A DNA stretch of 54,573 nucleotides, counting the filler, from Sluysia triapertura (Eukaryota): NCBI GenBank assembly GCA_046118255.1. It is 4 parts of 4 records of this genome, joined end to end, with 100 filler letters (N's around TTAATTAATTAA, not from the genome) between each part and the next. Parts side by side here need not be neighbours in the genome. Positions count along the whole stretch, not along the records: positions 1 to 13,813 come from JBJNIA010018077.1; 3 more parts are not named here. One strand, given 5' to 3'. Shown piece by piece: positions 3,606-52,835 of this stretch (its first letter is position 1; each line of letters begins with the position of its first letter). A program made the position numbers and the translations under genes. A model generated the notes under the pieces. The model was not told where the DNA came from and ran no database searches. It was given only the letters and a program-made list of their open reading frames with translations.

Positions 3606-5887
3606 CAAGTGTTCTTTCCTAACTAGAACTTTCTTACAAAAGATTATCGTCTGGAGCTGAGCTCGGCTAATTAGATACGGTTTACGTCACGAGCGGACGA
3701 CGGTCTAATTAGGCTTTAAAATAAGAAACGTGATGATCACTTATTGATAAGTCAGTAAGGCTCCTTTCAGTAATATTATGAATGTTAAATTATCTTTTAT
3801 TATGCTTTAATTTAGAAGTTAAACCAGCCTTTGTACGGTCTGATTTATACAAACTGTATTTTATAAAAATTAATCAAGAAAGACTTAATATTATAAGATT
3901 TATTATTTACAAATCGGTTGGATGCACAGAGTTTAGTTATAATGATAATAATAATATTCACTTTAGCACCTTAAACTTAATGTTTAGGTACAAAATAATT
4001 GAAAATTTAAAAGATTTTAACCTATCCTTTAACGGTATACGATAATACAATCAATTTAAGTCAATTTTATATTCTACCTGTTACGGTTAGAATAGTGAAC
4101 CCTATTTAATAAAAATTTACCTATGCATGGACAATAGCTTGATCCTTGAAAATTTTTCTCCATTTGCGATATCGAAAATTTTCTCTGAGTCCTATTTCTA
4201 AAATGTGTAGTTTATATATACAATCCTTACTTCCTTGTTTACTGTTTATATTCCTAATTTCGCTTTTGATTCATTAAAACAAAGTTATAAATTTAAAAGT
4301 GTAAATTATTATTTATATTTAAAAGTTTAAATTATTATTTATTTGTTATAATAATGATAATATTTAAGAGATAAATACTATAAAAATAAATAATTAATAA
4401 CTAAAATTATTCAAATTGTCAAAATAAAATAAATTACGATTGTTAAAATAATTAATCAGATATTATTAGAATAAAAATCGGATATTATTATTTGTTAATT
4501 ATTCCATTATTATTTGTTAATTATATGTCCGACAGTTCGACGATATATGTATGACAGTTCGACGATTCCGACATTTGAAAAATAAAGAGTTTACTTAGCA
4601 GATTTTGTGGTTTAATTGGTAACGCAATTTTTGAAAAAACAATTGAAAAGGAATACGTTATCTGACATTAATCGTTTTTGGTAACAAATTTATTCGTCGA
4701 AGAAATATTAGTAAACCCAACCAGTTGTCGATAATATTGATCTTCTGCTCGTCGGAGAAATTTCATTGTTTAACACTTTAGTAAATCAATTAAGTCAGTA
4801 ATATTTAGTCCGCTCGTTGGAAAAGTTCGCTTATTAGATTCCCGTGTGACCTGAATAAATAATTTATTTGATTTTGTGATCGAGAATTTTTTGAAACTAT
4901 CAGTAAGATTTTTATGTTAAGTTTAATCTATATTAGGAGATATAAAAATACTACTCAAAATCTTAATCATTACCTTTAGTTTCGGCTAGGCACAAAATCA
5001 TTTTTAGAAATCTTTAATAATAATTTTAATTTATTTTTATTATTATTTGAAGTAAATGGTTATATATTCTTCGTTTTTGATAATATATTTTGTAGTGTTA
5101 CGTCGTTGATTTAGTTAATTTTTTAAAGTAATTGCTGAGTTGACAAAGCTGAGTTCGATTGAAGTAAGCATAACATTTTAATTGATATTTATGATTTACA
5201 AACAGTTATTAAGCTAAAGAAGCATAAATATAAAGTTTTATATTTTTAAGTAAATTAAAAAGTAACCATAATTAAGTAACCATAATAGAAGAGAGTCCTT
5301 TCTAGAATTAATCATTTAGACTAAGAAAAAGATTAACTTTTGAAGGGAATAAGATTTATAGGTGATTAATATAAGAAAATTAGGACATAAGTTAATTGTG
5401 AGAAAAACCCTCAGAAGATTTATAATCTTTGTTATTAATTACAAGAAAAGAGTATACATTTGCATATATTTCAATTACAAGAAAAGCTTTTTTAAGTTTA
5501 CGTGCTGTTACTTACGAGTGCGTCTCCTTAGAATTAAAGCATACATCGTAAGCGGACCTTTAGAATTAAATAAGGAAATACTAACAGTACTAATACTGAA
5601 ACTTAAATTTATCTCGTTTAGAATGCTGAACTTATAGTAACTGATTCTAATATTTAATGCATTATACTGGAAGTTATCGTTCACACGTATCTGGTGGAAG
5701 ATATGGAACTGCAAATTCATTTAACAAAGTTTAAATTTGAATTTTCTCTTTTTGTCTTAAATCAAATAAGCTAGATTAAACTAAATACAAACCTTGAATC
5801 ATTCAATACAATATTTATCAATTTGTAACGAACTCAAAAAAATAATCATTTGTTTAAAAAACGGTTAGTTGTTACCACATATAATTT

Positions 5888-7370
5888 CAGTGGTAGCCAC
5901 ATTATTAGACTAAAACAGAAAAAATATGTTTTCTTTGGATTTCTTAATATTTGCTCATTATTGAATGTGTAACATAAGAAATATTATATATAATACACGA
6001 AATATTATGTATAATATACAAAATTCGATATATAATATATCTATGTTCTAAATTGCCTATATAATTAGATTATAATAAAAATATGATATGTGATAAGTTG
6101 TTTTAATTTGAAAAACTAAAAGTATCTGCACAATTTGTGGTTTTATCTTGATATTAATGACATCATTAGCCTTGACATATTGATTAGAATATTTTGTTAA
6201 GTGAGTTTTTTTTATATATCGATTCGAAAAAAAGGCCAAAATTGAAGTTTATCTTAAAAAACTGAAATGACGCAAGAAGATATTGCCAAAAATGTATGAG
6301 TTTGTCAGAAATCCATGTCAAGGGTGATGTATCAATTAAGTGGGAAAATGCAGCAGAAAGAAGAAAACATTAGTGAGAAATGATGGATATTTGGTGAAAC
6401 TTTCTACGATGAATCGTAAAGCCACCAGTATGATTTTGCAGAAGCAGTTAGAGACTTGCGGAATTCACGTTAATGCTAGAACAGCCAGAAGGAGACTTGT
6501 AGACCCAGAAGAAAGCCTAAGTTGGCGCCAGTAAAAAGGTTTGCAAGGCTAAACAACACCAGCATTTAACAGAGGATGACTGGAATCAAGTGAGTTTTAG
6601 TACGAGTCGTCCTTTCGAGTATTGGATGAAAAGACCACCTTTGGAAGAAGGAGACCTGATGAGGAGTTTCACTCTGATTGTGTCATAGAAACTGTGAAAT
6701 GTCTAACAATGATAGTCTGGTCGGTTATCTCCATCCATGGTCATGGCAGGCTGTACAGGTTGATGGAACAATGAATCAACATCAATATATGAATGTTCTT
6801 GAAACAAGGATTTTTCCTCAACTTCAGGATAAGTCCAAGAACGGTGATCTCCAATTTATGCAGGATGGTGTACCATGTTACATGGTGAAATCAGTGCGCA
6901 AGGTCATGGTGTTAATCTGGAAACTCTCCAGACATGAATCCCATAGAAAATCTGTGGAAGATTGTTTCAAGAAGAGTTTCTTCCCATAAACCAACTACCA
7001 GGACAGAACTTATTGAAACCCTGAAAAAGTCTAGGAATCATGATGACGATATCAAAGACTTGTACCCCAGGATAACAAAAGAGGTCAAACAAAGTACTGA
7101 TGCAACAGTTTGTACATTTTTTTATTAGGAGTAAATTGTGTTATCATTCTACATTAATAAAACTTCTATATGTTTTGGATCTCAGTATTTTTATCTCTTA
7201 TTTTACTTTCACCATAATTGTTTTGTAGAAAGTAGTTATTTTCCAATATTTTCATTTTTCCATGACATCTGTCGGTAAATGGCATGCATTTATACACTTT
7301 GGATTAATAGTTTCATAATATCTTGAATTTTATCACAATAATGGTTTGTCTAATAATTTGGTCACCACTG
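5888..7370 (+). mobile_element. Tc1-family DNA transposon, degenerate full-length copy
   Basis: 23-bp TIRs (CAGTGGTAGCCACATTATTAGAC vs rc CAGTGGTGACCAAATTATTAGAC, 20/23), TA on the right flank. Broken transposase: HTH-like 6340-6534 (HVNARTARRRL), WNQVSFS..ES, FMQDGVPCY, SPDMNPIENLW. Confidence 0.93.
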
Positions 7371-7801
7371 TACCTTATGAATTTTTCTTTTAATAATTTA
7401 TTGATAATATATCAGTCTAAATACTCTCTCTTCAAAACACAATAAAGATTCAGTAAAAATGTTTAAAATGCAAAATGTCAAGAAGTTAAAACACATTATT
7501 AGTAACAATTAATTTGTACAAATTATACGTTAATAGAATAAAAACAACTAAATTATATTTTTTATACTCTTTTTTCACTATGACTTATTCTTGTTCTATT
7601 AATACTATTTATTCTCACTCCATTGTCAATTACTTTTTCAAAATAAAATTTAACTGGATACTATACCAGTACTATTCATTTTCATTCTATTGTTGATTAT
7701 TTTTTTGGAACGATACATTAAATAGCTTTATTTTTAGTTTAGAATTATTTTTAATTAAATTAAATTTATATTTATTATTTTTTGATAATTTATCTCAATT
7801 G

Positions 7802-7977
7802 TTAACCCTTCCACTGCTCTACACGTATATATTTATAAAAATAATGTGTTTCATAAGCTCCAAGCGAGTATTTTTGCATCATGTTTTAAAATGGTTTCCT
7901 CCTCAACACAAATAAACTCGCAACCACTAAAATATATGTGCGCAGCGGTCGCAAAATTTCAAACGTGTTAGGGTTAA
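7802..7977. mobile_element. Possible piggyBac-type MITE
   Basis: Bounded by TTAA-CCCT ... AGGG-TTAA. The TIR is poor beyond the first bases. Confidence 0.3.
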
Positions 7978-8131
7978 AAGGTTAATTTAATTATGTTCAC
8001 TACATTAACTTCGGTTTATGTTTTTTAGTTGTGATGTTTTTAGGTGTGATGTTTTCTGATAAGTAATTCGTACTTGATATACAAGATAGATACATACATA
8101 TCAAGATTGTAGACTTTACTTGAGTCATTTG

Positions 8132-9970
8132 CTAGTCTCCGTATATAAGCGGTATTTGATTATTTGTAGCGTATTCATAAATTGGAGGTGGAAGTACTGG
8201 CATACCTGGAGGAGGAGTGTAATTATTCCTATGTGGAACTGTATATGCGTCGTCGTCATTATTATTGTTATGTGGCAAACATGGGTATCGACAACTATTC
8301 GAAACAAACATAATAATAGTCAATACCACTATAGCTAAAGCCATTACGAACAGTATTGCCGCCACAATTAATATCACTAATGCTGGATCATTTCGTAATA
8401 TTTCCAATATTGTTAAATGTTTTCTTGTTCCTTTAAATGGAAAATTCAAATATTTTGATGAGTGGCGGAATTTCACTATAATATGTCTATCTTCGACATA
8501 TAAAATATCTGAGCAAACCGTGACTGGATATCTCAATTCACTATTAATATAATTTTCGTATATGATCCACGAACTAAAATTAAGTCTGGCAGGTTTTAAA
8601 CATGCAAATTTGGCATGAATGTTTTGATTCAATATCTTAACTTTTACTTCATTGTTTCTATTATAGAATTCACAATATTCCGTTTTAAAAGATTGTTCGT
8701 GACATTGAACTATTGTAATTATCGTAATTAAAATCAAATGTATAAGATTTTTATTATTCGCAGGAGCCCGTATTTTCGTACCTATTTGAGATAAGTAGAG
8801 TATTGTCCAAAATATGTATAGTACCGCAAAAATTAGGAATATTGTAAAGAACTTGTAAGAGTGTCCCGTTGTACCTTCTGTAGTTGAATTATTTAAGTTA
8901 CTTATCGGTTTCTTAATTGTACCATAATCGGATAAGGTTGTCTGTATTTTCGTTGTTTCTTCATTTCTCAATTGATCTATTTGCTTAATAAATTTCCAGA
9001 TGTCTCGTGTATTTCTTTGAGTGTCGAAAGAAAAAGTTATTATCATTGGTCTATAACCGTAATGTAGACAATGTGGGATTCCGTTTAAACGATGTGGTTT
9101 CCCCACCAGTAAGGGTTTTAGGTAGATGCAATAGATTTCGAATTTATGTCGTAAAATCATTTTCTTAGAAATGAATTCGAACTTCCAATATTGATTGTAA
9201 ATATCGGTAATCATTATTTTCTGTTCCCTGCCATGATTTGTAGCTATATTCATATTTTTATATTCTTCGTCTGTTTCTGTTGCCATGACATTAGTTATAA
9301 GTGACAGAAGAATCACAATTAAGATAGAAAGCCAACAAATTATCTTTCCGAAACGATATTTATTAAAACAATTTCTTTTTCTTATACTAGTCATTATCAT
9401 TACTGTATTCTGAATATCTGAGTTGATTCCTGAATCCGAATTTTCCTCTGATTTAATTGCCGATGGTGATCCCCATGATACATCCGATAAATGAAGTGTA
9501 GAATCGACGATAACAGGTAATGGAAAATCTGGAATTTGTAATGGTGGATTCGACATAGGCATTTGATGTAAAGTTAATTCATCGCCAACTTGTGGAACTA
9601 ATAGTTGCGGTATAATCATATTTGAACCTGGTGGTATTTTTATAAATCTATATTTACTGTGAATAACCATATCTTCCAATTCATATGGGCCATTATCCCA
9701 ATCATTTACTAAATTTAGTACATATTGTACTAATACTTCTATATAGCATGATAGAGTTCCATTGATATTTATAGGTGTTTGATTTACATTATATGTTACC
9801 AGACTTGGTCTTTTTAAGAATATTGATTCCCAAGTAGTTAGAAAATTTTTATGAATGACAGTAATAGTAGTGCCGGTATCTACGATTGCTCTAACCCAGC
9901 GTCCGTTAAACCGCACATTTTGCATTATATGAGCTAAGTCATTTCCATGAGAATGCATCATAAATACCAC
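8132..9970 (-). CDS. 612-aa ORF: retropepsin-like aspartic protease fused to multi-segment membrane/secreted polyprotein (element accessory/env-like ORF)
   Basis: N-terminal VRFNGRWVRAIVDTGTTITVI. Hydrophobic segments KIICWLSILIVILLSLITNVMA, FFTIFLIFAVLYIFWTILYL, LIHLILITIITIVQC, ALVILIVAAILFVMALAIVVLTIIMFV. Pro-rich tail with PPIY. Confidence 0.85.
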   Translation of the reverse strand: MVFMMHSHGNDLAHIMQNVRFNGRWVRAIVDTGTTITVIHKNFLTTWESIFLKRPSLVTYNVNQTPININGTLSCYIEVLVQYVLNLVNDWDNGPYELEDMVIHSKYRFIKIPPGSNMIIPQLLVPQVGDELTLHQMPMSNPPLQIPDFPLPVIVDSTLHLSDVSWGSPSAIKSEENSDSGINSDIQNTVMIMTSIRKRNCFNKYRFGKIICWLSILIVILLSLITNVMATETDEEYKNMNIATNHGREQKIMITDIYNQYWKFEFISKKMILRHKFEIYCIYLKPLLVGKPHRLNGIPHCLHYGYRPMIITFSFDTQRNTRDIWKFIKQIDQLRNEETTKIQTTLSDYGTIKKPISNLNNSTTEGTTGHSYKFFTIFLIFAVLYIFWTILYLSQIGTKIRAPANNKNLIHLILITIITIVQCHEQSFKTEYCEFYNRNNEVKVKILNQNIHAKFACLKPARLNFSSWIIYENYINSELRYPVTVCSDILYVEDRHIIVKFRHSSKYLNFPFKGTRKHLTILEILRNDPALVILIVAAILFVMALAIVVLTIIMFVSNSCRYPCLPHNNNNDDDAYTVPHRNNYTPPPGMPVLPPPIYEYATNNQIPLIYGD

Positions 9971-9982
9971 TTGTTTATTCCT

Positions 9983-12900
9983 TAGTGCGTGAATTGAAGG
10001 CGGTTTATATTTCTTAAATTGTACTCCTCTTTTGGTGCCATTTTACATCTATTAACGTGTACTACGAATGTTTCGGAATTAACTTTGTTAGGATCTTTAA
10101 CACATTTGTATTGGTAACTTTTGTTATTAAATAAGGACCTTTAAAAGGTTTGTGTAACTGACCAGGTTTAGTTATTGTATAATATATTAATACTTCATCA
10201 CCTATTTTAAAAGTATGTTCCTTCGCTGTTTTATCGCATGCATCTTTATATATTTCTTGAGAGTATTTAATTTGAAGACCTGCGCGTTTCCATGCATATT
10301 GTAATTGTTTTCTCATTGTTGTCACATATTCCGAAATCTCCACGTACTGTGAAGTTGGAGGAACCCACTCCAAATCTACTGGCATGTTAGAATGTCTGCC
10401 GTACATTAAATAGAATGGAGTAAAATTAGTTGCCGGGTGTACAGAACTTCTACATGCAAAAAGGCATGGTGCTATATATAAGTCCCAGTCAGTCTGTCTA
10501 TCATTTACGTAAGATTGAATCATATTAATAAGAGTTCTGTTAAAACTTTCCACTAATCCGTCAGTTTGTGGATGGTAAGGAGATGTATAAATTCGAAGAA
10601 AATTGAAGATTTTAGCCACTGATTTAATCACATTGCTAGCATAGTTAGTTCTATGATCTGTTAATAATTTTCTAGGAGTTTCATATTTGTAAATGATCTT
10701 TTCTACCAATATTTGTGCCACCGTTTCGGTCTTTTGATTAGGCATCGGGTATGCCTCTGGCTATTTAGTCAGGTAATCCGCAAATACATTTATATACTTA
10801 TTACCATTAATAGTCTCTGGAAGAGGACTCGTAATGTCCATAGCGGTAAATTCTATTGGTGATAATGGTACTAGCATAGGTTTTAGTGGTACTTTAGTCT
10901 TTTGTCCAGTATTCTTTCGTCGGCAACATATCGAACAATCTTTACAGCATTTCCTTATATCCGATTCCATATTTTCCCAGTAGTATTTACTTTTAATTCT
11001 TGATAATGTTTTCCTCGTTGATAAGTGACCTCCTAATTGTCCGTCATGACATTGTATTAAAATAGGTATAATTAATGATTCCGGTATAATAGTTTTCCAT
11101 TCGTCTTTATTATTTTTAAATCTTAATATTCCATCCATAATAGCTAGTCTTTTTGATTGTAATTCGTTTAAAGTTCCTTTAGCTAACCCATCTAGAATAG
11201 CCGAAATCTCTTTATCTTCTCTCTGATGTTTAACAATGTCTTCAGAGTTCTGTAATTTTCCCGATACTGACATAATTTGTATCAAATTGATACTTCCCTT
11301 ATCATCTACATTCGTCAATCTAGACATACAATCGGCTCCGTTATTTAAGCTACCTGGCTTATAAACAATTTCCAAGTTAAATTCTGATAGTTTGTTGAAC
11401 CATCGGTTGAGTCTACTAACTTCGTCTCGGTGATTATATAAATATGTTAAAGGTTTGTAATCAGTGTACAAATATACTTTCTGTCCTAGCAAGTAATGTC
11501 TGAACAATTTACATGCATACACAATTGCTAGGCATTCTCTTTCGACTGTTGAATAATTCATTTCTGCTTTATTAAGTCTTCTACTGGCGTATGCTATAAC
11601 TGCTTCACGATTATTTTTATCCTTTTGACCTAAAATTGCACCGATAGAATAGTTACTAGCATCCGTAGTTTATTAACATCCGGAAATATTAATATTGGTG
11701 CTGTAGTTAGATGTTCTTTTAGTTCCTTAAATGCCTTTGCCTGTTCTTCGGTCCATTTAAATTCTACATCCTTTTTTGTAAGTTTTCTAAGAGGTTGTGC
11801 AATTTTCGCAAAATTTTTTACAAATCTTCTATAATAATTAGCCAAACCTAGAAAACTCTGAACCTTTTTAACGTTATCAGGTTGAGGAAACTTAATTACC
11901 TTTTCAATATTTCTTGGATTTGGTTTGATACCATCTTTAGATACTATGTGTCCTAAGAACTCGACTTTTTCTTCTGCCCATACACATTTTGTAGGTTTTA
12001 TTTTAAGTCTTGCAACTTCTAGTCTTTTGAGTTTTAAAATCTTTTGAAAATATTATGATGTCATCTATATATACCATAACATTCTTGCATCCTGATAATA
12101 CAAAATTCATACAACGCTGGAAAGTTGCTGGTGCGTCGGTTAAATCAAAAAGCATTTTTTCGCACTCATATAACTCATTTCCGCACGTAAACGCTGTTTT
12201 ATGTTTATCTTTTTCTGCTATTTCAATTTGCCAATATCCACTTTGTAAATCTAAACTTGTAAAATATGTAGCGTTTCCTAATTTATCCAACATCTCATCT
12301 ATTAGTGGCAGTGGGAACACATCTTTTCGTGTTATTTTATTCAATTCTCTAAAATCTATACAGAATCGCATCGTGCCATTCTTCTTTTTAACTAGTAATA
12401 CTGGTGATGAAAAAGGAGAGAAACTCGGTCTTATAACTGCGGCTTTCTTCATAGTGTCAATTTGATCTTGCATTTCCTTTTGATTGCATATAGGGATTCT
12501 ATAAGATTTTCTTCGAACTTATAAGGTTATCTTCTGTTAATGGTATTTCATGTTTTATGATTAATGAATCTCCAATATCATATTTATTTTTTGAAATTGC
12601 TCTTGGATATCGATATATAACTTCGTATAGTTGTTCTTTTTGTTTTTTAGTTAGATTTATGTTGTTAATTTGAATTTCTCCGTAATCCTCCTCTTGTATG
12701 TCGTGTTGTAGTTTTATTGTATTATTTTTTTAATCTGTCACCACGTTAACATGTGTTGGTATTTTATAATTAACAATTCTTCCTAATTTAGTTCCTATGA
12801 ATAACCATTTATTATCATTTGTATAATTTATAATTCGAACAGGTATCTTCCCTTCGCAATTATTACAGATCGAATCTGCAATACCTACATCCAATTTCTT

Positions 12901-13425
12901 TTGGTTAGTCTCTGAAGCTATAAACATAATTCGGCCAGTTAATGAACTATTTGTTTTTGCTGGCATTATATATTCGGTTCTACGCAATAACCATAATGGT
13001 TCATCAACATAAACATCATCATCATCATCGATAGTTCTGTTTGAATGACTATCCATCAATTTAACACTATTAAAATCCAGTATTACTTCTTTTAGTTGTG
13101 ACAGTATATCCATTCCCAATATCATGTCTTCTGGACATTTTTTCATTACTCTCAATTTTACGTCGACTTTATTTTGCCCTATTTCGCATACGGCTTTCAT
13201 TACTCCAACAATGTGTATGGCATCTCCGGTGACTCCTGATAAATGTGAAAAATGATTTGCTACATTTCCTTGTTCCTCTTCTGTTAATTGATTTTCATTG
13301 ATTAATGATGACACTGCCCCTGTATCTACTAGTGCCAAAATGGTTCTTCCATTAATTTTAACGTTAGCCATTGGTCTCTTGGAATTGTTATAATTATTAT
13401 TTGCACATATTATCATATAAACCAC
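9983..13425 (-). pseudogene. pol: Gypsy pol (protease, reverse transcriptase, RNase H, integrase), disrupted
   Basis: ORF pieces 12730-13425 (PR), 12003-12473 (RT), 11630-11845, 10761-11561 (RH, IN zinc finger), 10062-10745 (IN core). In-frame stops at ~12730 and ~10761; frameshifts or deletions near 12520, 12030, 11665 and 10100. Confidence 0.95.
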
Positions 13426-13471
13426 ATTTGGTATCGGTGTCGTTGGAGGATTTGGATAAATTTTATTATCC

Positions 13472-13813
13472 TTATCTTTGATTATCCTTATGTATATCCT
13501 TTTGTGATTTTCTAAGATTTTCCTTTAACTCTTCAATTTCTTCAATTTCATCATTTTGAATTGTCTGTAATGCTACATTTTCATTTTCTATTCTCGTTCT
13601 TTCTTTTCTTAACGCATTTATTTGTGAGTTAGCGTGATGATGTAACAAATATTTCGCCAAAAATGGAAAACAACCTTTTATCAATTTCCAAGTAAAACCT
13701 GAAATCTTATAAATTCCTACAACAGATAAAACTTGGGATATTATTAACGCTATTACTTTAATAATTATGTAAATACCAATTAATCCTGAGAAAGCTTGAC
13801 CTAAAATTAGAAA
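13472..13813 (-). CDS. C-terminal fragment (TM anchor + cytoplasmic tail) of a putative viral-type envelope glycoprotein, chuvirus G / gB-like
   Basis: Frame is open from the gap edge: FLILGQAFSGLIGIYIIIKVIALIISQVLSVVGIYKISGFTWKLIKGCFPFLAKYLLHHH, then a charged tail. The pattern resembles the C-terminus of chuvirus-type glycoproteins as recalled; not verified by search. Confidence 0.6.
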   Translation of the reverse strand, partial: FLILGQAFSGLIGIYIIIKVIALIISQVLSVVGIYKISGFTWKLIKGCFPFLAKYLLHHHANSQINALRKERTRIENENVALQTIQNDEIEEIEELKENLRKSQKDIHKDNQR

Positions 13814-13913
13814 NNNNNNNNNNNNNNNNNNNNNNNNNNNNNNNNNNNNNNNNNNNNTTAATTAATTAANNNNNNNNNNNNNNNNNNNNNNNNNNNNNNN
13901 NNNNNNNNNNNNN
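13814..13913. other. Assembly gap linker
   Basis: 44 N + TTAATTAATTAA + 44 N. Confidence 0.99.
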
Positions 13914-14859
13914 TATTATTAATATTATTTATTTATTATTATTATTTATTGAATGAATATCATAAATCTATTGAATGAATATCGTAACATATATATAATA
14001 TAATATTAAAAAAATAATGTAATTTATTACATTAGTTTATAAAATATCGAATTGCCTGTTTATATTTTTTGTAATCCTTTAGGGGCTGATGTTTTTTAAA
14101 ACATTCCTCAGGATGGAGCCCGTGTTTTCGCAACAATATACTGTTTCTTTTCTACCTTTTATTTTTCGATCACTACAAAATAGCGCAGTCCTTGGAATTA
14201 CTTCGTTCATTTAAAATAAAAAAACATTTTCTTATATGACCATCTTCGACATATGACGGATTACATAAACTAATTAGTGTTGAGGTTGCCTCGGCGGTGG
14301 AACGCAAAAGGTTAAGAGATCAAAACCTCTTAAGCAATCTATATGCTAATAATTATTTCTTCCATTAGGATTATTTACATTTTCGGTTTTATTGGTTATG
14401 TGTAAATAATCTACAAAATAATTAATTAGAAATTAACAATTACTTTGTATATTTTCGAATTTTGAAATATCTTTTGGGTGTTCTTCCGAAAATTAAATTA
14501 TGTCCAACATGTTTATGTTCTTGAATTTTTTCTGCTATTTTCCTTTTAAAAATCAAAGCTTACTTCAGGACATATAAAATACTTTCGTCACAAAAATTTA
14601 TTCATTTTCGTACTAAAAATAAAAATTTGTTTTTACCAGTTTTAATAGAGTTAAATGTTGTTTCACACGTTAAATATTGTTTCACACGTTAATACTTTAA
14701 AATTTAATTTGCATTCTACTTTTAATAATTTAAATTTATTTAAAGAACAATTAAATACATACTACAAACATTTTTATTTCCTAAGAATCACAATAAATGA
14801 TGTACAATTTTTCAACATAAATGCATTATTGAATGTATTAGTGATGTCGATTTGGAAAA

Positions 14860-15200
14860 CATATCACGTATTCACAGTAAACACCGATGACTAGATGGAC
14901 GTAAACCTATAAATATTAATTCAATTAACTTTGTGGAAATATGATAAAACCAATTTAAAACAAACAAAAAATGAATCCAAATATAAAGTTGGTGATTAAA
15001 TCAGAAAACTTTAATAATTGGGGTGATGAGGTGATACATATTAATGAAATTTGTACAAGAAAATAGGTACAATGAAAATTTTATCATGGAGAATTACAGG
15101 TTTTACCTGAAAAACCAATAATTTATCATATTGAAACTAAAGGCAGAGGAAAAACCAAAAAATTTACTTGTTGGAGGCTTGAATCTCAATTAGTGTATAA
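14860..15200 (+). mobile_element. Polinton/Maverick-type integrase C-terminus plus chromodomain remnant
   Basis: Broken translation SKYKVGD*IRK..NNWGDEVIHINEI..FYHGELQVLPEKPIIYHIETKGRGKTKK..LV matches the KFKVGD..NWS.E.F..FY..ELQ..Y.IEK pattern of this integrase class. Confidence 0.6.
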
Positions 15201-16250
15201 GCGTCGACGTAATGCATTCATTTTCATCAAAGGAGTACTGAAAGTTTTCATTTAATATTACTCACTCGAAATCCAATAAAATTTACTTATAATTTTTATA
15301 AAATTTCAATTAGGCCAAATTTACTTTTACCGCTGACATTAATTTGTTTTTGACCAGAAAATTAAACTTATTGATAAATCGTGTATTGTAGAAAAACAGA
15401 AAATACAATATTTCGACGAATGTATGATTATTGCATTTGTGGAAAATAATAAAATCATATTAAAATAATGGATCATTATATTGACAATAAAATAAAAATG
15501 AAATTATTATACATGGAGAAATTTAATGTACAAATTAAGAATGTATCAATTACTATATGAACAATTTAATTTTAAACATTGAAATTATGGCAGGTGAATT
15601 TTGTGATGTTGAATGTTATATTCTTAAATTATGCTTGAAAAATAAAACATGGTTGAGCCAGATGGAAATTGACTAGTTAATTAATTGACAAGTTAATAAG
15701 ATCTCTATATTTATTCAAGAAAGTTTTTATCAGAATGATGATGGCACCAATATATATTACCAAGTGACTGTAAAACTATTTCTTAAAGTATTGTCGTAAG
15801 GATGAGTTAAGTAGTAATCACACGACTCTGTTAGAGTTGCAAGACAAAACCTTATTAGTACTTTCATTGTCTTACCAAGATGAAGCCATTGTTTGAAATA
15901 TTTGATCCTTTAGTTTAATTATTAATTAATTTAGTTTAATTTCATTGCAATCTTATTTAATTTAGTTTCAAATATTGTATTTATTGTCGTGTTATTTTCG
16001 GCTCAGATTTAGTTCAGTCTGAATATCAGATATTTCATGGTTTAATATATCATGATTGAATTTTATATTATTTTTTATTTTATGTTGTACCTCAGTTACA
16101 AATTTTTGGCTCGCTATTTTGAGTTTTTTTATCGGACTATAGAAGTGCGCACGTTATTTAGCATTTGGATGAGGATAAACTTGGAAATACTGGGTACGAT
16201 AACTAAGTGCATGATTTAGTGCATCAAGCCGATTGTTAGATGACTGACTT

Positions 16251-17380
16251 TTATTTGATGCATTTTTCCACATTGAAATATTTGAATTGACTTTTAAGGG
16301 CATCACTCTTAACATTCTTAATTTTATTTAATGCATCTTTAGCACGTTCCGAAAATGTAAATTCAGTAAAATGAATAAATGCATCATCTTTCATCTTTTT
16401 AACACGTTTACTACAATTACTAGGCCCACCTGATGCAGCCAGAAACTTTCTGTAGTTGTTAGCATAGATTTCGAACATAGAAAATCTTAGCATGCTTCAT
16501 TTTTTATTTACTTTTCCGTTTCGGTACACCACTAGAATACAATTATCAACCGAAAATGGCTTATCCATCATTTTGCCAGATTTAATTTCATGATTATTTG
16601 ATTTTGAAAGAACGAATTGTGCAATTTGTTTAGTTTGACAAACACAAAATACATTACCACGATTAATATTAAATGAAATTCATAAAATTTTCCACCTGAT
16701 TGAAAAAACGTTATCAAATCACTTTCACCAATAAATGCTTCACAACTTTTACATGGTGCCTCAACGTAATAACTTCTTGGTGGACATTGTCATAATTTGT
16801 ATTCAGTTTACATGAATTGTAATGAACAATTACATCTTCAAGTTTACTTTTGAACTGGCATTCATTTAAAAGACATTTGACTTTATATCTTTATATACAG
16901 GTGTGCTGCTCGTTTCATAATTTTTATATTGCGAATTTTGAGATGGACAGTTACTTGTTTTTAAATAATTTTCTAAACATGGTTTACTAAAATAAGGATC
17001 TACAACAATTTTTTGCACGATTTACATTTAAAACAATCATTACAATCAGAGAATAAATCGGATAAAATTGATAATGTTCGTCATCATAATAATTTTTTTC
17101 GCTAAAATTTTAATTCATTAAATCTTTCTTTTGTGATTAGGTTTTTCTCTCCTCTCTGTCTTTTGTAATTTATTTTACTTTTTCTTTGTAGTTCTTACAT
17201 TACGTTTGAGAGCACTATCATTACAAGTAAACATTCTAATATATTGCACAACCGAACCACAAAATGAATTCACATGTACAGATTTTATAAGTTGACGCAA
17301 CAACCAGTAGTCCCAACTATTAATTATTACCTCATTGGTACACAACCGTTTACTATATAATTTATTATTATCATTATTTT
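16251..17380 (-). pseudogene. Degenerate intronless ORF with RING-like and TRAF/Sina-type zinc-finger remnants
   Basis: Frameshifted translation FKCKSCKK/IVVDPYFSKPCLENYLKTSNCPS ... KVKCLLNECQFKSKLEDVIVHYNSC (~17070-16805). Confidence 0.45.
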
Positions 17381-25574: not shown

Positions 25575-25692
25575 TGTTGGGATAAAAGACTGTAATAAAA
25601 TAAAAAATTGTTAGACTGGGCTGATAGCTCGAACTGCGCAGCGAGAGGTCCCGGGTTTGATCCCCGGTCAGTCCACTTTATGAAGTATAACA
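25575..25692 (+). mobile_element. tRNA-core short element, copy 1 (internally deleted)
   Basis: TGTTGGG..TAACA termini, 4-bp TSD TATG, tRNA-like GGGCTGATAGCTC..CCGGGTTTGATCCCCGGTCAGTCCA. Confidence 0.85.
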
Positions 25693-25717
25693 TATGGTTT
25701 ACCCGAGTTCATGCAAT

Positions 25718-25876
25718 TGTTAGACCATTATAAAGTGGTCTGACCTGTGATCAAACCCGGGACCTCTCGCTGCGCCGTTCGATGCTTTACCCACTGAGCT
25801 ATCAGCCCCGTCTAACAATTTTAATTTATTATAGTGAATAATACCATCATGGCACTTTAGGCCTTTTACCCCAACA
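25718..25876 (-). mobile_element. tRNA-core short element, copy 2
   Basis: TGTT..AACA termini, 4-bp TSD CAAT, 73-nt tRNA-like core at 25736-25808 with A-box TAGCTCAGTGG and B-box-like GGTTTGATC. Confidence 0.88.
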
Positions 25877-26688: not shown

Positions 26689-26799
26689 TAATAATAATAA
26701 TAATATATTAATTTATATTGCCCTCATATCTACCGCGAAAGTACTCAAAAGCGCTTAAGGTAAATCATTCACCATAATATTTCTGAAACAGAAAGAACT
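26689..26799 (-). mobile_element. L2-clade LINE 3' end
   Basis: rc reads AAGCGCTTTTGAGTAC..GATATGAGGGCAATATAAAT followed by a (TAT)n tail. 67 nt are identical to 43449-43515. Confidence 0.75.
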
Positions 26800-33800: not shown

Positions 33801-34204
33801 AAGATCATAGTTATAATAATACGTATTAATCGTAATTTAATATATTCATTTTTTTAATTACATGTATTTTTATATTTATTGATTATATAATAAGTTATTA
33901 AACTTCGTTTTTGCCGTCCTTTTAAAAAATTAAGCTTTTTGTACATGTGTTTTAATTCATCATTTTGTGTAATATTCAAAATTGTAATTAACCTAAATAA
34001 AATACATTTTCCTTGATTTATAAATCTTGATTTATTATAAAAAGATTCATTTTTTTAATAACATGTACTTTTATATCTATTGCATATAAAATGTGTTAAT
34101 AAAAAAATTTTTTTATTAACTTCATTTTCGCCATCCTTTTAAAGTCTCTATATATCAATTAAAATTAAGTTTTTTTGTGCCTTTTTCATTTATAATGCAT
34201 TGTA

Positions 34205-37200
34205 ATGGCCGATTCTAAGTATAGTCCACGCAGTAAGCGTTCAAAACGTTCATATACCAATGATAGAACCAAACGAAGGTCCGATGATTCATCAAATTAT
34301 TCTGATGATAGATCGCACAGAAAGTCTAAGAAGAATCATTACAATGAAAGTGATTCACGGTCATATACACCAGATTCGTCAAGAAATTCCTCACAGTCAT
34401 CACGCTTTAGTTCGTATTCTGCCCAAGATTCAAAAAAGAAAAGTCAAAAAAGATCTTACAAAAGGTCTCGTCGATCTCGCTCTTGGTCAAAGCGATCTTC
34501 TAGTGGTAGCAGTAGTAGTAGCAGAAGCAGTAGTAGGTCATATTTAGAAAAAAAGAGAATAACTCGACCTAGAATAAAAAAGCAGGTTTGGAATAACAAA
34601 GTGTACATAGTTGGAGAAGGTATGAAGGAAAACTCTTTTCATTTTTGTGATTCATGTTCACTTCCTATATATATATATATATTTATTGTCGATTAGTTCC
34701 TTGTAAACACGTGTTTTGTATGAATTGTGGTACAAAATATCAGAATAAAAAGTGTCCCAGATGCGAGAAACAGGTCACGATGACAGAAGCATGTCCGTAT
34801 CACACAATTTTTATGTGCTATGAAGGTGGAAGTTCTCATAGCACTCAGGGTTGTCGTCGCACTTATTTTTCTCAGCGTGATCTCAACTCGCATATAAATC
34901 ATAGACATAAAAAATCATTGCCTGGTATTAGCGCTATTTGCGCAACTAGTGCATCAACAGCTGCTCCCACAGGTTCATGTCCTACAATTACAGCTCCTAT
35001 TGTATCTGTGTCAGGTACTATGAAAGCTCCACATGCTTCTTTAGGTATGCCAGTTATTAGTGGTGCTGTTGGAGGAATTCCTGTTTCTGCAGTTGCTGCA
35101 GTTTTTAATTTACAAGCAGTAGCAGGTTTACCATCAAATCAATTTTCGAATGCCGCAGTGCCGCCTGGTGCGTCTACTCCATCTATTGTCGGTCCAAATC
35201 CATTACACAACAGCAGTCAATCGTCAAATGCGTTAATGCAATCAATGACTAATTTATTTCATACTATTACGAGAAATCAACAGTCTCATGCACCTTACAC
35301 AAACCCAGTCAATATCAATACAACTGCTAAGACAAATATAAACACAGGAACAAATTTAGGACAAATTACACCTCGACTAACGGCCCACCAAACAATTCTC
35401 CTGTAAACACTAGTAGACCACCACCACAAGCACAGACTCTTAATCCATTATCTTTACTTCAGTGTGCAAATAATCCACAGAATGCATTACCTGGTTTACT
35501 TAATCAAGTAAATATTTAATTATATTAAAAATTATTGAAACAAGGTTTACTCTTATTTATTGCGGCAAGATGAGAGTTGTATTTTTATGGGAATATTTTA
35601 TATTTAATGTAGTTCGGTTTATCATATTTTATGAACAATCATATTTTTATATACACAATGTTTGTATCTACTATAGAAAATACATAGAAATGAACACTAA
35701 GAACGAATCAAACCAATAAATTTATTTTATTCTACTTCATTTAGAATTTATATCATTTTGAACCTTTACTTACTAATTCACCAATACAGTAAATTAGTGA
35801 ATTATTGTATTCAGCCATTTTAGCTGAGAATTTCTGTAGCATTTCAAGATTTTTAATATCGTTTAGAATCGCTTTAGTTAAGAATTAGATTCAGAAAAAA
35901 ACGGTTTTAATCGATAGTAATTTTAATTTAAAACACATGACATGTAATTTTAACATCTCATAACTTTTAATTATATTATTAATATCTGATTATATTTTTA
36001 TAGTTTTAATACATAAACTTACATCCAATAACTTAACTTTACAAATACGTAAGTTATACGCTATAATTCAACTTATAATCGAGTTTTTTGACAAGGATGA
36101 AATTTAATTTCGATAAATTTATCTCTACGAACATCAAAAGCTATGAGAAATATTAACAAAGCATTTGACAAAAATAAGCAAACGTTAGAACCCTTAAGCG
36201 ACAAGTTAACGATGACAATATAAGTTTTCAAAATGAGTGCCGAAACTCATAGGAATCTATTATGTACTTGAAGGAGTTATTTGTCTTGGATCCTTGGAAA
36301 AGCCAAATTTTGATGATTTTCTACATATAATTAATCAATATTAATCATCGCTCATCGATTTGTGATATTCCTTGCTTCTATATTTTGGATCATGTATTAT
36401 AAAGTATTTCAAAGGCTTCAAAAGCCCGAAACATTTACTGTACGATACTCAACAGTTTGTGTTATATTATAACCTTAAATCACAACAATGTGCATAAAGA
36501 GATATCTATCAAGTGGCCATCATTAGTTAAATAATAATGCTAAACTGAATATTTCAAGTTAACCATTATGGTAGTGAATCAACTTCAATGTGAATCATTT
36601 TTTCATTTTTCGTACTTCAAACTCGGTACCATCTAATTACCACTTTTCGAAGAAGTGCTGAATCAGTTTAGTCAAAACGGAGTGCTCGATCTGTTAAGTA
36701 TGTCTAAAGTTGAAATAAATGAAATTCTACGTAAAGTTTAGTAATGCAGTGACGCATTTGGTTCTTATTTTGATTAAATAAAATCAATTTTGAGTAGCTA
36801 TTAACTTAATTTTGTTATATAAAAATATATACGATTACTAAATTTTTTGCGCATTAAATTTTATGCATTAGGTTTTAAAGATTGATGCAATACTAAGCGA
36901 AATTTTTACATTAAATTATTACTATTTAACTTAGTAAGATATTTTAAATTTTTGATCTGATTGTATTTAATAGCATGAAATACTGAAAAAGGAAATGTAT
37001 TAAAAATTATAAGCCAAATTAAATTAAATGTTAAAAAGATTCTAGAATGTTACGAAAACTTCTTGATAAATATACCTTGATTTGTTTGTTCGTTTTTTTT
37101 AAAGGTTAGTATTGTATAGAAGTACACTACAAATTTAATAAAATTAATAATTGCAATAAATATTAATACTTTAATTTATTATGAATATTATGTAAATTAT

Positions 37201-40659: not shown

Positions 40660-42096
40660 GTTGATTTTAGATTTCTGACAATTATTATATTTGACTATTT
40701 TATATTATATTTGATTATTTTGCAACTTCTAACCAATACAAATCTTTAAAATAAACAGAGACATCTTCAATTTTTTATAAGTGAAAATAAGTTATATTCT
40801 GCAACATATTAAAGATAAATATTGTCAAGAAAAAATAATTCAACTAAAATATGATGAACTTTGTGCAAGAGGATTCATCAGTGAATAATAGAACAAGATA
40901 TTGGGTCGTCTCTTAAGCAATGTCAAATATTTTCAATTTTATAAATTTTTTTCGAAAATTTTTCGATTTAGGGAATTCACATACGATCTAAATATTAAAT
41001 CACGTAATCGTCAAAGTACTAAGTATGTCCTCACATTCACGTTGATTGGCGACATGTTATTTTACTGTTTCCGAATCTTTCTTTTCATTATCAATAGCAA
41101 TTTATTATCACCCAAGTTTACTTATAATTCATTGTTCCATCGTCGTAGAGCTCAACTCGAACGGCAGACATTAATATTGCAATCACATGAGGGCCTGACC
41201 ATAATTGATCGCATCTTCTACTTTTCATAATCATTACTTTTAAATCCGGATATATTATTAGAGAAAAAAGAGTTCGGCTGCCTAAATTATGGAAATTTCA
41301 CTGTATTAATTTATTTCCTCAGAAAATTTGCTGCGCTATCTCGTCCAAACACAAAACCTTGTTTCAGAATCTAATATTGTTAGGTAAGCTACATCTTTAT
41401 GCATTTGGTAGTGGATAAATGGTTGTGCTTTTGTTTAAGCATGTATCACAATAAAGTAGCGCATTATTGATTTAATCTATTCAGTCATTATGTCGACTCT
41501 AAAGTGACAAATGTGAAGTACATTCTGAATTTCATCAACGCTCAGTTATTAGTTAAACTTAATAACATTAACATTAATTTTTCTACTTAATTATCACCAC
41601 ATTTTATATATACATAATCTTTAAGCTTTATCGTCAATCCATGTTTGAAACATTTTGTATCATTTCTTGACTGAACTTATTCTTTTTCATTACATTTAAT
41701 TAAAAATTGTGAAATTTAACAAATTGTTTGAATTTTTATATTCAAACATTTTTATATTTTAAATTATTTACTAATATTAATTTATTTATTATTGTCATGA
41801 ATATAAATTATTTTTTTATTGATAAATTCATCTTGGTATCTCGAGTTAATTCGTCAATTGCGTAAGAGAAACACTAAAAGCAAAATATGAATGCTAATAT
41901 TTGTTCAATTTACGGTGTTTTTTAATCCCTTAACTACTGATAAATTTCTACAAAAACAAAAACAAGAGTTGGAAAAGTGGTGTAATTGCACATGTATTTT
42001 AATAGGAATTATATGCGTTATGATTTATGCATGCATTCATTTATTCAGGACAGAAGGGTTTTAAACTTCTTTTCTGGATCGATTGAAAATAAATAT

Positions 42097-42252
42097 TGTT
42101 AGACTTCATAAAATGGACTAATGGAGGATCGAATCTGGGACCTCTCGCTGCGCAGTTCGGTGCTCTACATTTGAGCTATCAGCCCCGTCTAACAATTTTA
42201 TATTTCTATAGTCTATTATACTACATGGTACTTTTAGACCTGTATCCCAACA
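42097..42252 (-). mobile_element. tRNA-core short element, copy 3
   Basis: TGTTAGAC..CCCAACA on the + strand, 4-bp TSD ATAT, homologous to 25718-25876. Confidence 0.88.
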
Positions 42253-43448: not shown

Positions 43449-43795
43449 CCGCGAAAGTACTCAAAAGCGCTTAAGGTAAATCATTCACCATAATATTTCT
43501 GAAACAGAAAGAACTTTGCTTTTTCCTTAAATATTTCATAATCTTCTAGCAATTTGACATTATCTGGTAACTGGTTGTATATTTTTGAGACATAACAGTA
43601 TACAACCTATCACCTAGCTTGTTATGACTGTTAATTTTATATAGATTATTATTAAGTCTCAATGAAATATTCATCTTCATTTCCAATATTCGTATTATTT
43701 CCAAAAGATATTGAGGACTTCCGTGATGTAAGCAATTGTAAATTATTGTCATAATTTTAAATTCTATTCTTGCTTTTATTGGCAACCAATAAAAT
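43449..43795 (-). mobile_element. L2-clade LINE, 5'-truncated (ORF2 C-terminus and 3' UTR)
   Basis: WLPIKARIEFKIMTIIYNCLHHGSPQYL..GDR is the typical L2/CR1-group post-RT motif. Confidence 0.8.
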
Positions 43796-50599: not shown

Positions 50600-52835
50600 T
50601 CTTATTTTTGATAATAATCCTCTTACTATTAATCCGAAAAGGCTGGAAAATCTATATTTCACAGACGATCAAACCTCCCTCTTATGACAAAGGAACTATC
50701 AATACTTCAGTACTCCCATCATATTCAATTAATCCATTACTTACGAACACCAACTTTCCAAAATTGGACGTCGAATTTAATACATGAAATTTCCATCTAT
50801 ACTAACCACTATAATAACCTATCCTTGCGAATCACAATTTCAAGAGAATACCGAAAATACTCCTAATTCGAAATTACTAGCCAATTTCAAACAACTACGA
50901 CATAATCGGACGTATCTATTAATAACATATCTATTGTTAATCTTAATCCCGTCTATAGAACGCGTCAAACAATTATTCATTACGTCAAGTTCTCTATTAA
51001 AATGAATGACTTTCTACAGGCGGACGAAACGATTAAGAGAGTAACAAACTATTTACAGATCCAAACTACATCGGATTCCATAAAGTTCTCCTTGTTTATT
51101 ATACCATTTATAGTCTTCGTCAAGTGCCTCAATTCTAAAATAAAAGTTGTGCGCGAAAATCACCTTGCCGTATGCAAAGAGATGCTCCCCGAAACATATT
51201 ATAAAATACCTATTTAGATACAAATTTTCATGGAATAATGAACTTTTAGATTTGGAGTTTTAGGATCTAGAAACTTCGAAAATTTCAATTACCTTTACGA
51301 AAGAGGAGATTATGACATACGATATTGTGACGGACCCCGATGATAATGATCCATATTTTGATGATGCAAGAAATAATTCTATAACCACGACTCCGGAACT
51401 AACAAATTATTCACGTACAACTGCCCTCTTGACGGTTAGTGATTCGCAAAATCTACCTAGTTCCCGAGATCTCAATGAATTCCACGGCAAAAGTAGTCTA
51501 TCTAAAAGAGGAAAATACATACACCTATTCGACTAATCTAATACACGCAATGCTGATAGCCATAAGTATGCAGTTCTTATGGACCACGATTTCCATGATA
51601 TTATCCATTTTGCAATGGCCAAAACCTATGACAATTCATAAAAAGTACGAGGACAACCCGCTATCAGCAGTCCAATGCGCTTAATGACATTAGGTAATCC
51701 TAACCTCGACAAATTCTGTCTGGCAAGATATAAAAAAATTGATGGTATGCCAATTCATGCACTTATAGACAGCGCTCCACCCTACAATATAAGGCGTTTT
51801 GAGTCTTTGCAGGTACAGGAATTAACCTTTCTTAGGTCAACTGCTGGTCAGTTGGTCGATGCTCTGGGTCGCGAACTGCCCATAATGGGCGTAATTTCCA
51901 ATCAAGTAGATATCCTAGATAGGAAAATAATAATCACCTTTATCCCACCTCTTGTATTATAGGTCTAGACACAATTCACGCATTAAATAACGTTTTTATT
52001 CATCCTATCACTGGACTTACTATTATTCACCCCATAACCAGTTATTATAACCGGATAGGATAACTTTACATATAAAGTACACATTTGTATACACACATTT
52101 TTTATCATTATTATAAACATATTTATTGGTATGTAGTGTATAGACTCATAATCGTATAAGTTAGGATAATAATTAATCTCGGTGCATGAAGTCCGCTGAT
52201 CTCATCTTGCTGAGTAGTCAGCACAACACCAGAGGTTATCATTTACAGTAAATATTTAAATAGGATTTCATCGATTTGATGCTTAAGGATTCAAGTTTTC
52301 TCCTTAAAGTCTGTATTATAAGCATGCTTTGCCCTATTTGCTTAGATTCTTTAGCGTATTATTATGTTAAATGTTCACCTTATGGTCATAGTTGCAATCA
52401 CAAATGTCTCTATATCACAAATGTCCAATGTGCGGAACACAAGTAGTATATTATCAACTTTTCTTTAAATTTCAATTGACCCCCAAACCTTCTAGTATTG
52501 CACAACAAAATCCAAAGTATAAGTTAAACGCTCAAATTCCCCCTCCACCTGATCTTTCGTTAGCTCTAACACCATCTCAACGGAAACACCACCGTCGTAT
52601 ACAGCTAAAAAACTTTTATAAATCTATTAACGTCTATTCAGAGAATCCTACGCGCATCATAAATCCTTTTCTTAAAAATATTATATAAATGTTATTCTGA
52701 AATAATAGTCATTATGTGTATATTTATCATTTTTATCTATTTTATTGTATGTACATTATTATATGGATTTTATTGTTATATTACCTCACGTAAATAGCTT
52801 TGGGGACAAAGCTTCCCCACCATGGAAGGAATGTT
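50600..52835 (+). mobile_element. Decayed LTR-retrotransposon internal region (gag-like plus protease, internally deleted)
   Basis: KIDGMPIHALIDSA..DALGRELPIMG..VL*GLD retropepsin remnant at 51675-51975. TTTGGGGACAAAG..GGAAGGAA-TG near 52800-52833 resembles a pre-LTR/PPT junction. Boundaries approximate. Confidence 0.55.

Follow-up and report, generated by a model that had tools for sequence, protein, structure and literature searches.

The window analysed here, a stretch of 54,573 nucleotides (nt), filler included, from Sluysia triapertura (assembly GCA_046118255.1), carries at 8132-13813 a decayed, broken and dead copy of a Ty3/Gypsy retroelement. Six-frame reading together with Pfam gives, in order along the minus strand, the tail of a class III fusion protein (env), a protease (PR), a reverse transcriptase (RT), an RNase H (RH), an integrase (IN) and then a frame of 636 codons. 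The protease ahead of RT is called PR1 and a second one, which opens the last frame, PR2; identifiers beginning with P are those of related proteins, and L001 and L002 are metagenome loci. The features of the element are listed below, Burro being a planarian element to which we return.

13814..13913, no strand: assembly gap, which cuts the 5′ part of the element
13472..13813, minus strand: C-terminal end of a class III (gB/chuvirus-type) fusion glycoprotein, with membrane anchor and tail (PF24664)
13093..13362, minus strand: PR1, a complete retropepsin with DTG and the second motif ILGMD (RVP, E 7.3e-12; profile positions 1-90 of 90)
12520..13092, minus strand: PR-RT spacer, in the slot of Burro's dUTPase-like domain; aligns with the relatives' spacer; in-frame stop at 12730-12732
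11651..12518, minus strand: reverse transcriptase (RVT_1, E 3.3e-22), with a frame change and a short gap near 12030
10101..11669, minus strand: RNase H and integrase (zinc finger, core, GPY motif), with an in-frame stop at 10761-10763
9982..10100, minus strand: C-terminal tail of the integrase, in the third frame, stop at 9982-9984; aligns with L002 1198-1228, P0005 1393-1426 and P0121 3266-3296
9731..9916, minus strand: PR2, the N-terminal two thirds of a retropepsin, DTG at 9880-9872 (profile positions 1-62 of 90, E 1.2e-11)
8792..9343, minus strand: predicted type I membrane unit 1, from hydropathy; signal or transmembrane segment 9343-9287, anchor 8848-8792
8132..8758, minus strand: predicted type I membrane unit 2, with a short signal-like stretch and an anchor at 8380-8303

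These parts had been named at the same minus-strand places in a preliminary description of the stretch, and its word 'glycoprotein' was right: the env piece (the last 113 residues, 13813-13475, hydrophobic) matches Monjiviricetes_fusion (PF24664) over positions 544-628 of 653 (E 3.9e-11). The PR-RT-RNase H-IN order of Metaviridae (Ty3/Gypsy) pol is present, as are both features of the GAG-ENV-POL errantiviruses, an env directly upstream of pol and of class III type. The env tail is 47% identical to P0121 1837-1912 and 44% identical to P0010 931-1001, and PF24664 also matches the full env of P0010, P0011 and P0121; a search with the window's env tail found no longer proteins. Beyond the gap no env or gag similarity was found (tblastn of P0121, P0010 and P0011 against the window gave no match above 13813), and the longest stop-free minus-strand frame within 13914-16500 is 81 codons. 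The DTG of PR1 lies at 13326 and the YIDD motif of RT at 12071, both on the minus strand, and the RT is 57-61% identical to those of L001, L002, P0005, P0008, P0010 and P0121. Since Pfam gave no dUTPase match in the PR-RT spacer, position is the sole basis for its dUTPase-like name. No long direct repeat or long terminal repeat (LTR) flanks the element in the window, and the repeat depth in run X1 drops near 8055, so that, with the gap at 13814, this copy looks cut at both ends; 5.7 kb of it survive. An Rfam scan gave no match, and searches of viral contigs and of genome contigs returned no loci.

Relatives were searched for with the RNase H-integrase part as the query, its stop read as X. In all, 1,488 longer proteins matched, and the counts below (11 top and 109 other matches) refer to the best 120 of these. 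The top 11 stand apart, at 40-52% identity, and all of them run 228-1389 residues beyond the integrase match. In a quick RH-IN tree of 40 rows, in which the rows besides the window are 39 of the 120 matches (the top 28 and 11 picked, P0035 having been removed by a coverage filter), all of them relatives without element names and no named Metaviridae among them, the window groups with P0001-P0010 at a Shimodaira-Hasegawa-like approximate likelihood ratio (SH-aLRT) support of 99, and P0011 joins at 91. In P0121 (3735 residues), P0010 and P0011, env, PR, RT, RH, IN and a membrane tail are coded in one frame, with gag ahead in P0121 and P0011. L001 and L002, found by a metagenome scan with P0004, are single open reading frames (ORFs) of more than 2,200 residues that comprise PR, RT, RH, IN, PR2, a degenerate third protease, ankyrin-type repeats, a signal, repeats and an anchor. 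ORF1 of L002 (2368 residues), nearly identical to P0006 and about the same element, is collinear with the window's PR1, RT, RH, IN, IN tail and PR2 across the breaks. Hence the one long polyprotein that the preliminary description had proposed, in which pol is flanked on either side by membrane proteins and a single protease is not all there is, is borne out by the one-frame P0121, P0010 and P0011 and the collinear L002, and the outcome that it had named as contrary (an ordinary gag before PR, an LTR directly after IN, or a misassembly) is not what was found.

A few features of these relatives were noted in passing. The polyprotein C-termini of P0003-P0006, P0008-P0010, L001 and L002 are similar acidic and hydroxyl-rich tails ending in Val, which we take to resemble PDZ-binding motifs. 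Accessory ORFs lie 3′ of the polyprotein at 6861-9923 in L001 and 7268-11517 in L002 and include an exonuclease (PF00929, E 6.5e-9 and 1.5e-11, respectively); a second accessory ORF looks related by eye and has no Pfam match, L002 in addition gives a weak ubiquitin-like match, and none of these accessory ORFs was found in the window. P0001 and P0010 are labelled as bacterial metagenome-bin proteins (Turicibacter, Flavobacteriaceae), yet they are eukaryotic-type retroelement polyproteins, and the labels are probably due to contamination.

The frame of the window copy is broken eight times. The two junction overlaps noted in the preliminary description are both real and without a spacer; their sizes are 50 nt (env frame over protease frame, 13475-13524) and 58 nt (third-frame integrase tail over the last ORF, 9985-10042) instead of the ~55-65 nt given there, and they account for only two of the eight breaks. 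The other six are inside pol: two are stops, at 12730-12732 and at 10761-10763, and the rest are frame changes, located near 12520, 12030, 11660 and 10095. Of these six, four fall within RT, RNase H or integrase. As each junction is coded in one frame in the relatives, the comparison of sequences indicates that the overlaps are products of decay and not programmed shifts. The frameshift-linked ORFs that the preliminary description had offered as its other option are very improbable, and so is a role of such shifts in fixing how much env is made relative to pol and how much pol relative to the 3′ membrane proteins: both overlaps do fall between domains, and no length difference is listed in run X1 at the IN-PR2 overlap, but neither junction has a slippery heptamer X XXY YYZ, the relatives are in frame at both, there are six other breaks inside pol, and contigs of other length occur at the env-PR junction.

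The family itself is high-copy and very abundant. In run X1, 21,076 contigs align on 5000-13813 and 3,285 on 7600-10300, and the depth over the element, which is summed contig depth and not copy number, ranges from hundreds to 10^5, compared to ~17-30 for unique flank contigs. Every bin of the last ORF lies above the flank depth (258 to 83,624). Some of these contigs vary in length against the window, near 12520 and near 13471, and a letter other than the window's is seen in contigs at the stop codon in the integrase. In the codon that ends the last ORF (8132-8134), nearly all of the depth likewise shows another letter, and the family's last ORF may extend further downstream than that of the window copy. 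We also considered whether the last ORF had been spared from decay and rejected this as weak, since the confinement of all eight breaks to 3.77 kb out of 5.68 kb has a p of 0.04 (0.09 if the two junctions are set aside), and the borders of the ORF are themselves defined by breaks.

Retroviruses and LTR retrotransposons are generally described as having one protease, located before RT. The second protease and the membrane segments that had been described 3′ of the integrase are present in the window (DTG, three to four hydrophobic segments), the protease over part of its length only. PR2 lacks the second conserved hydrophobic-hydrophobic-Gly-x-Asp motif and, because its last third is missing, is probably inactive in this copy; a second frame gave a faint match of 3.6 bits, without significance. 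Among the relatives' tails, phmmer matches PR2 best to the protease that comes first after the integrase in P0006, P0004 and P0008. A post-integrase protease occurs in four of the top 11 matches (P0004, P0006, P0007 and P0008), which carry one to three retropepsin domains 3′ of the integrase in the same frame, in none of the 109 others listed, and also in L001 and L002. In each of the five intact elements (P0004, P0006/L002, P0007, P0008 and L001), the first such domain has retained both D[TS]G and the second motif; between L001 and L002 it is ~57% identical. Between these two loci, the proportions of synonymous (pS) and non-synonymous (pN) differences are 0.60 and 0.24 in PR2 and 0.66 and 0.21 in PR1 (44 aligned PR1 codons), which suggests that PR2 is about as constrained as PR1. 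All 13 post-integrase domains, including that of the window, have a higher median score against the clade's eight pre-RT proteases than against 73 outside it, and this points to an origin by duplication inside the lineage. A tree of the proteases was poorly supported and was set aside.

Not every one of these domains looks catalytic, as four of them (P0006_954, P0008_1197, L001_1251 and L002_1388) are without Asp-Thr/Ser-Gly and yet conserved (pN 0.33, pS 0.72). Together with the missing second motif of the window's PR2 and the seven of 11 top matches that manage without a PR2, this would fit post-integrase proteases that are mainly non-catalytic scaffolds or regulators, dimerising with the real protease or binding partners, while PR1 makes all the cuts. 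We regard this as unlikely, since the first post-integrase domain keeps both motifs, and its sequence, across the five intact elements.

Other arrangements of the same modules were seen in the relatives: P0121 has two tandem proteases before RT (2012-2257), and in P0005 (1-290) the repeat otherwise found after the integrase, complete with its signal and anchor, immediately precedes the protease. The protease and repeat modules move to either side of pol. In the window, DSGINS (9419-9436, minus strand) lies in the linker that leads from PR2 to the first hydrophobic segment; it fits the DSGxxS phospho-degron pattern, possibly by chance.

The last ORF (10042-8132, 636 codons) is long enough that an open frame of this length would arise by chance at the same composition with a probability of ~3e-23. 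Its hydropathy peaks at residues 234, 399 and 555, with a shorter signal-like hydrophobic stretch at ~433-447 seen by eye, and from this profile two type I membrane units are predicted. The predicted ectodomain of unit 1 has two Cys and a Ser/Thr stalk; that of unit 2 has three Cys, and unit 2 ends in a proline-rich tail with a PPxY motif (8188-8177). The anchor and tail of unit 2 score 7.0 bits on a profile of eight relatives' C-termini, a modest likeness equalled by one of 300 shuffles. The relatives' own repeat, of which 16 copies were aligned, spans ~90 residues, has two cysteines and may be fibronectin-like. Against PDB sequences the last ORF gave nothing at E below 1, and an Atlas search gave no usable match; viral glycoprotein C-termini at 0.75-0.78 in an Atlas search with parts of it were dismissed as chance level.

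The last ORF might instead be a chimera: a deletion or a recombination near 9730 would have fused the start of PR2, with the frame kept, to a tandem membrane-protein gene of unrelated origin, in which case the usual 3′ end of the family would not be the one seen here. The protease similarity does end at 9730, where the depth is 192 at 9717 and 3,577 at 9729, and the ectodomains match nothing in the relatives. Equally low dips are found elsewhere in the ORF, however (164 at 8795, 332 at 9347), and the listed joints include none at 9720-9730. The last anchor and tail are similar to the C-termini of the relatives, and the layout of signal, ectodomain and anchor is the clade's own. Hence, we hold such a fusion to be rather improbable.

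We think it fairly probable that the window holds a decayed and truncated copy of a high-copy, planarian Burro-like Ty3/Gypsy family with env before pol, and that the intact element encodes a membrane-threaded polyprotein in which PR2 likely frees the integrase. Topology, cleavage and the role of PR2 would likely be as follows. Gag would remain cytosolic, while a signal peptide would direct env into the lumen of the endoplasmic reticulum (ER), and the env anchor would bring the chain back to the cytosol for PR-RT-RH-IN-PR2. Further pairs of signal and anchor would yield one or two surface proteins, with signal peptidase freeing their luminal ends. PR1 would release the enzymes. Without a further cut, the integrase would remain attached to the signal peptide that follows it; PR2 is located at that place and would make the cut. 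Alternatively, as retropepsins work as dimers, PR2 may be an in-chain partner of PR1 or of a tandem copy. More tentatively, and with less confidence than we would give to an even chance, a clade of enveloped flatworm retroelements may make a polyprotein that is threaded through the ER in the manner of flaviviruses and carries up to three additional retropepsins 3′ of the integrase, at least one of them catalytically active, that free the integrase and interchangeable surface proteins; the two ectodomains of the window's element, which belong to no known family, would then be a second envelope or attachment system.

Several observations weigh against this membrane-threaded polyprotein with a working PR2. 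The PR2 of the window is incomplete (positions 1-62 of 90), and the synonymous sites compared between L001 and L002 are near saturation. Seven of the 11 top matches have no post-integrase protease, and as six of these have a predicted tail anchor, the layout does not depend on PR2. For the PR2 trait, the tree implies three changes and does not show a single origin, and among the records found env and a post-integrase protease occur together only in the window, as L001, L002, P0004 and P0006-P0008 begin after env. No contig of run X1 is shown bridging the IN-PR2 junction, and no length difference is listed there, in a table that also missed the break near 10095. The two window ectodomains do not match each other, nor do they match the relatives' repeat (-1.7 bits, shuffles reaching 6.4; in a second comparison, against the repeat alignment, 12 and 6 of 100 shuffles scored as high), and no homologue of the last ORF was found among 3,161 candidates of 349-1113 residues or among 1.84 billion representatives.

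With the window copy dead, its value is as a pointer to its family. There, a protease duplicated 3′ of the integrase, with active-looking and dead copies under selection and coupled to membrane proteins of the same chain, makes processing a testable question, namely how a nuclear-bound integrase is released from a polyprotein anchored in the ER. The finding also links orphan ORFs of tandem membrane proteins to env-pol elements.

The layout of the 5′ half is already known. Since env before pol has been published for Burro (PMC6431247) and for the GAG-ENV-POL errantiviruses (PMC13524379, in the parts available), the lineage is not new, contrary to the undescribed lineage of the preliminary description. 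In the portion of PMC6431247 available, planarian Burro carries env in frame between gag and pol, along with a dUTPase-like domain and ankyrin repeats. As far as that text goes, the window's element and its relatives are like Burro/GYPSM1 in several respects: there is one huge polyprotein, in which an env matching mononegavirus fusion glycoproteins stands in frame between gag and PR, and a slot for a dUTPase-like domain separates PR from RT; accessory ORFs occur, copies number in the thousands, and ankyrin repeats are seen in the clade members P0006, P0008, L001 and L002; decayed Burro fragments are also reported from Dugesia japonica (PMC6431247). The single frame of Burro is broken in the window; env and pol share one frame in P0010, P0011 and P0121. 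The accessible text names one protease and no membrane protein 3′ of the integrase (PMC6431247). The element thus works like Burro and the GAG-ENV-POL elements, but its membership in Burro proper is not established, because Pfam found no ankyrin repeats in the window's ORFs and the remainder is lost in the gap, including the parts where Burro's BIR, BCL2 and MATH domains and its length of more than 30 kb might show.

GAG-ENV-POL elements with an HSV/gB-type env have been described from Platyhelminthes, Nematoda and Bryozoa, six of them in Schmidtea (Smed_errantivirus_1-6), with a class III env ahead of pol as in the window (PMC13524379, as available in part). By eye, the Smed_errantivirus ectodomain rows of that paper have motifs in common with the env of P0121, and the proposed planarian host draws on this likeness; the env piece in the window lies outside the segment published there, which leaves no direct match to a named element. 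The main text, as available, has 'protease' once and 'fibronectin' never, and discusses only chromodomains 3′ of the integrase (PMC13524379). The accessible parts of PMC8532177 and PMC11410931 added nothing on domains. We found no literature on a protease behind the integrase, the Burro domain maps (Grohme 2018 and supplements) and Repbase GYPSM1, which could show one, lying outside this coverage. The conserved extra proteases 3′ of the integrase appear to be the new and undescribed part.

The Drosophila-type errantiviruses (gypsy, ZAM) share the Ty3/Gypsy pol order PR-RT-RH-IN and an envelope gene with the window's element, but they differ in an F-type env that is a separate ORF behind pol (gag-pol-env) and in their one protease.

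Elsewhere in the window, whose DNA is AT-rich, many contigs of run X1 skip ~960 nt at 5955-6917, where a DNA transposon has likely inserted; the stretch contains a decayed frame at 6678-6989 that resembles a transposase, has no fitting Pfam match and is by its motifs presumably Tc1/mariner-like. A host gene on the plus strand (34196-35406) encodes a RING domain and a Hakai zinc finger (PF18408, E 2.1e-14), and a protease-like fragment (ALIDSA) with no Pfam match was seen by eye at 51642-51962, also on the plus strand. Short related repeats with tRNA-like inverted arms, with no Rfam match, lie at 25582-25876 and 42095-42252. Finally, an exact 67-nt repeat (26733-26799 and 43449-43515) adjoins two assembly gaps, a hint of scaffolding at repeats.

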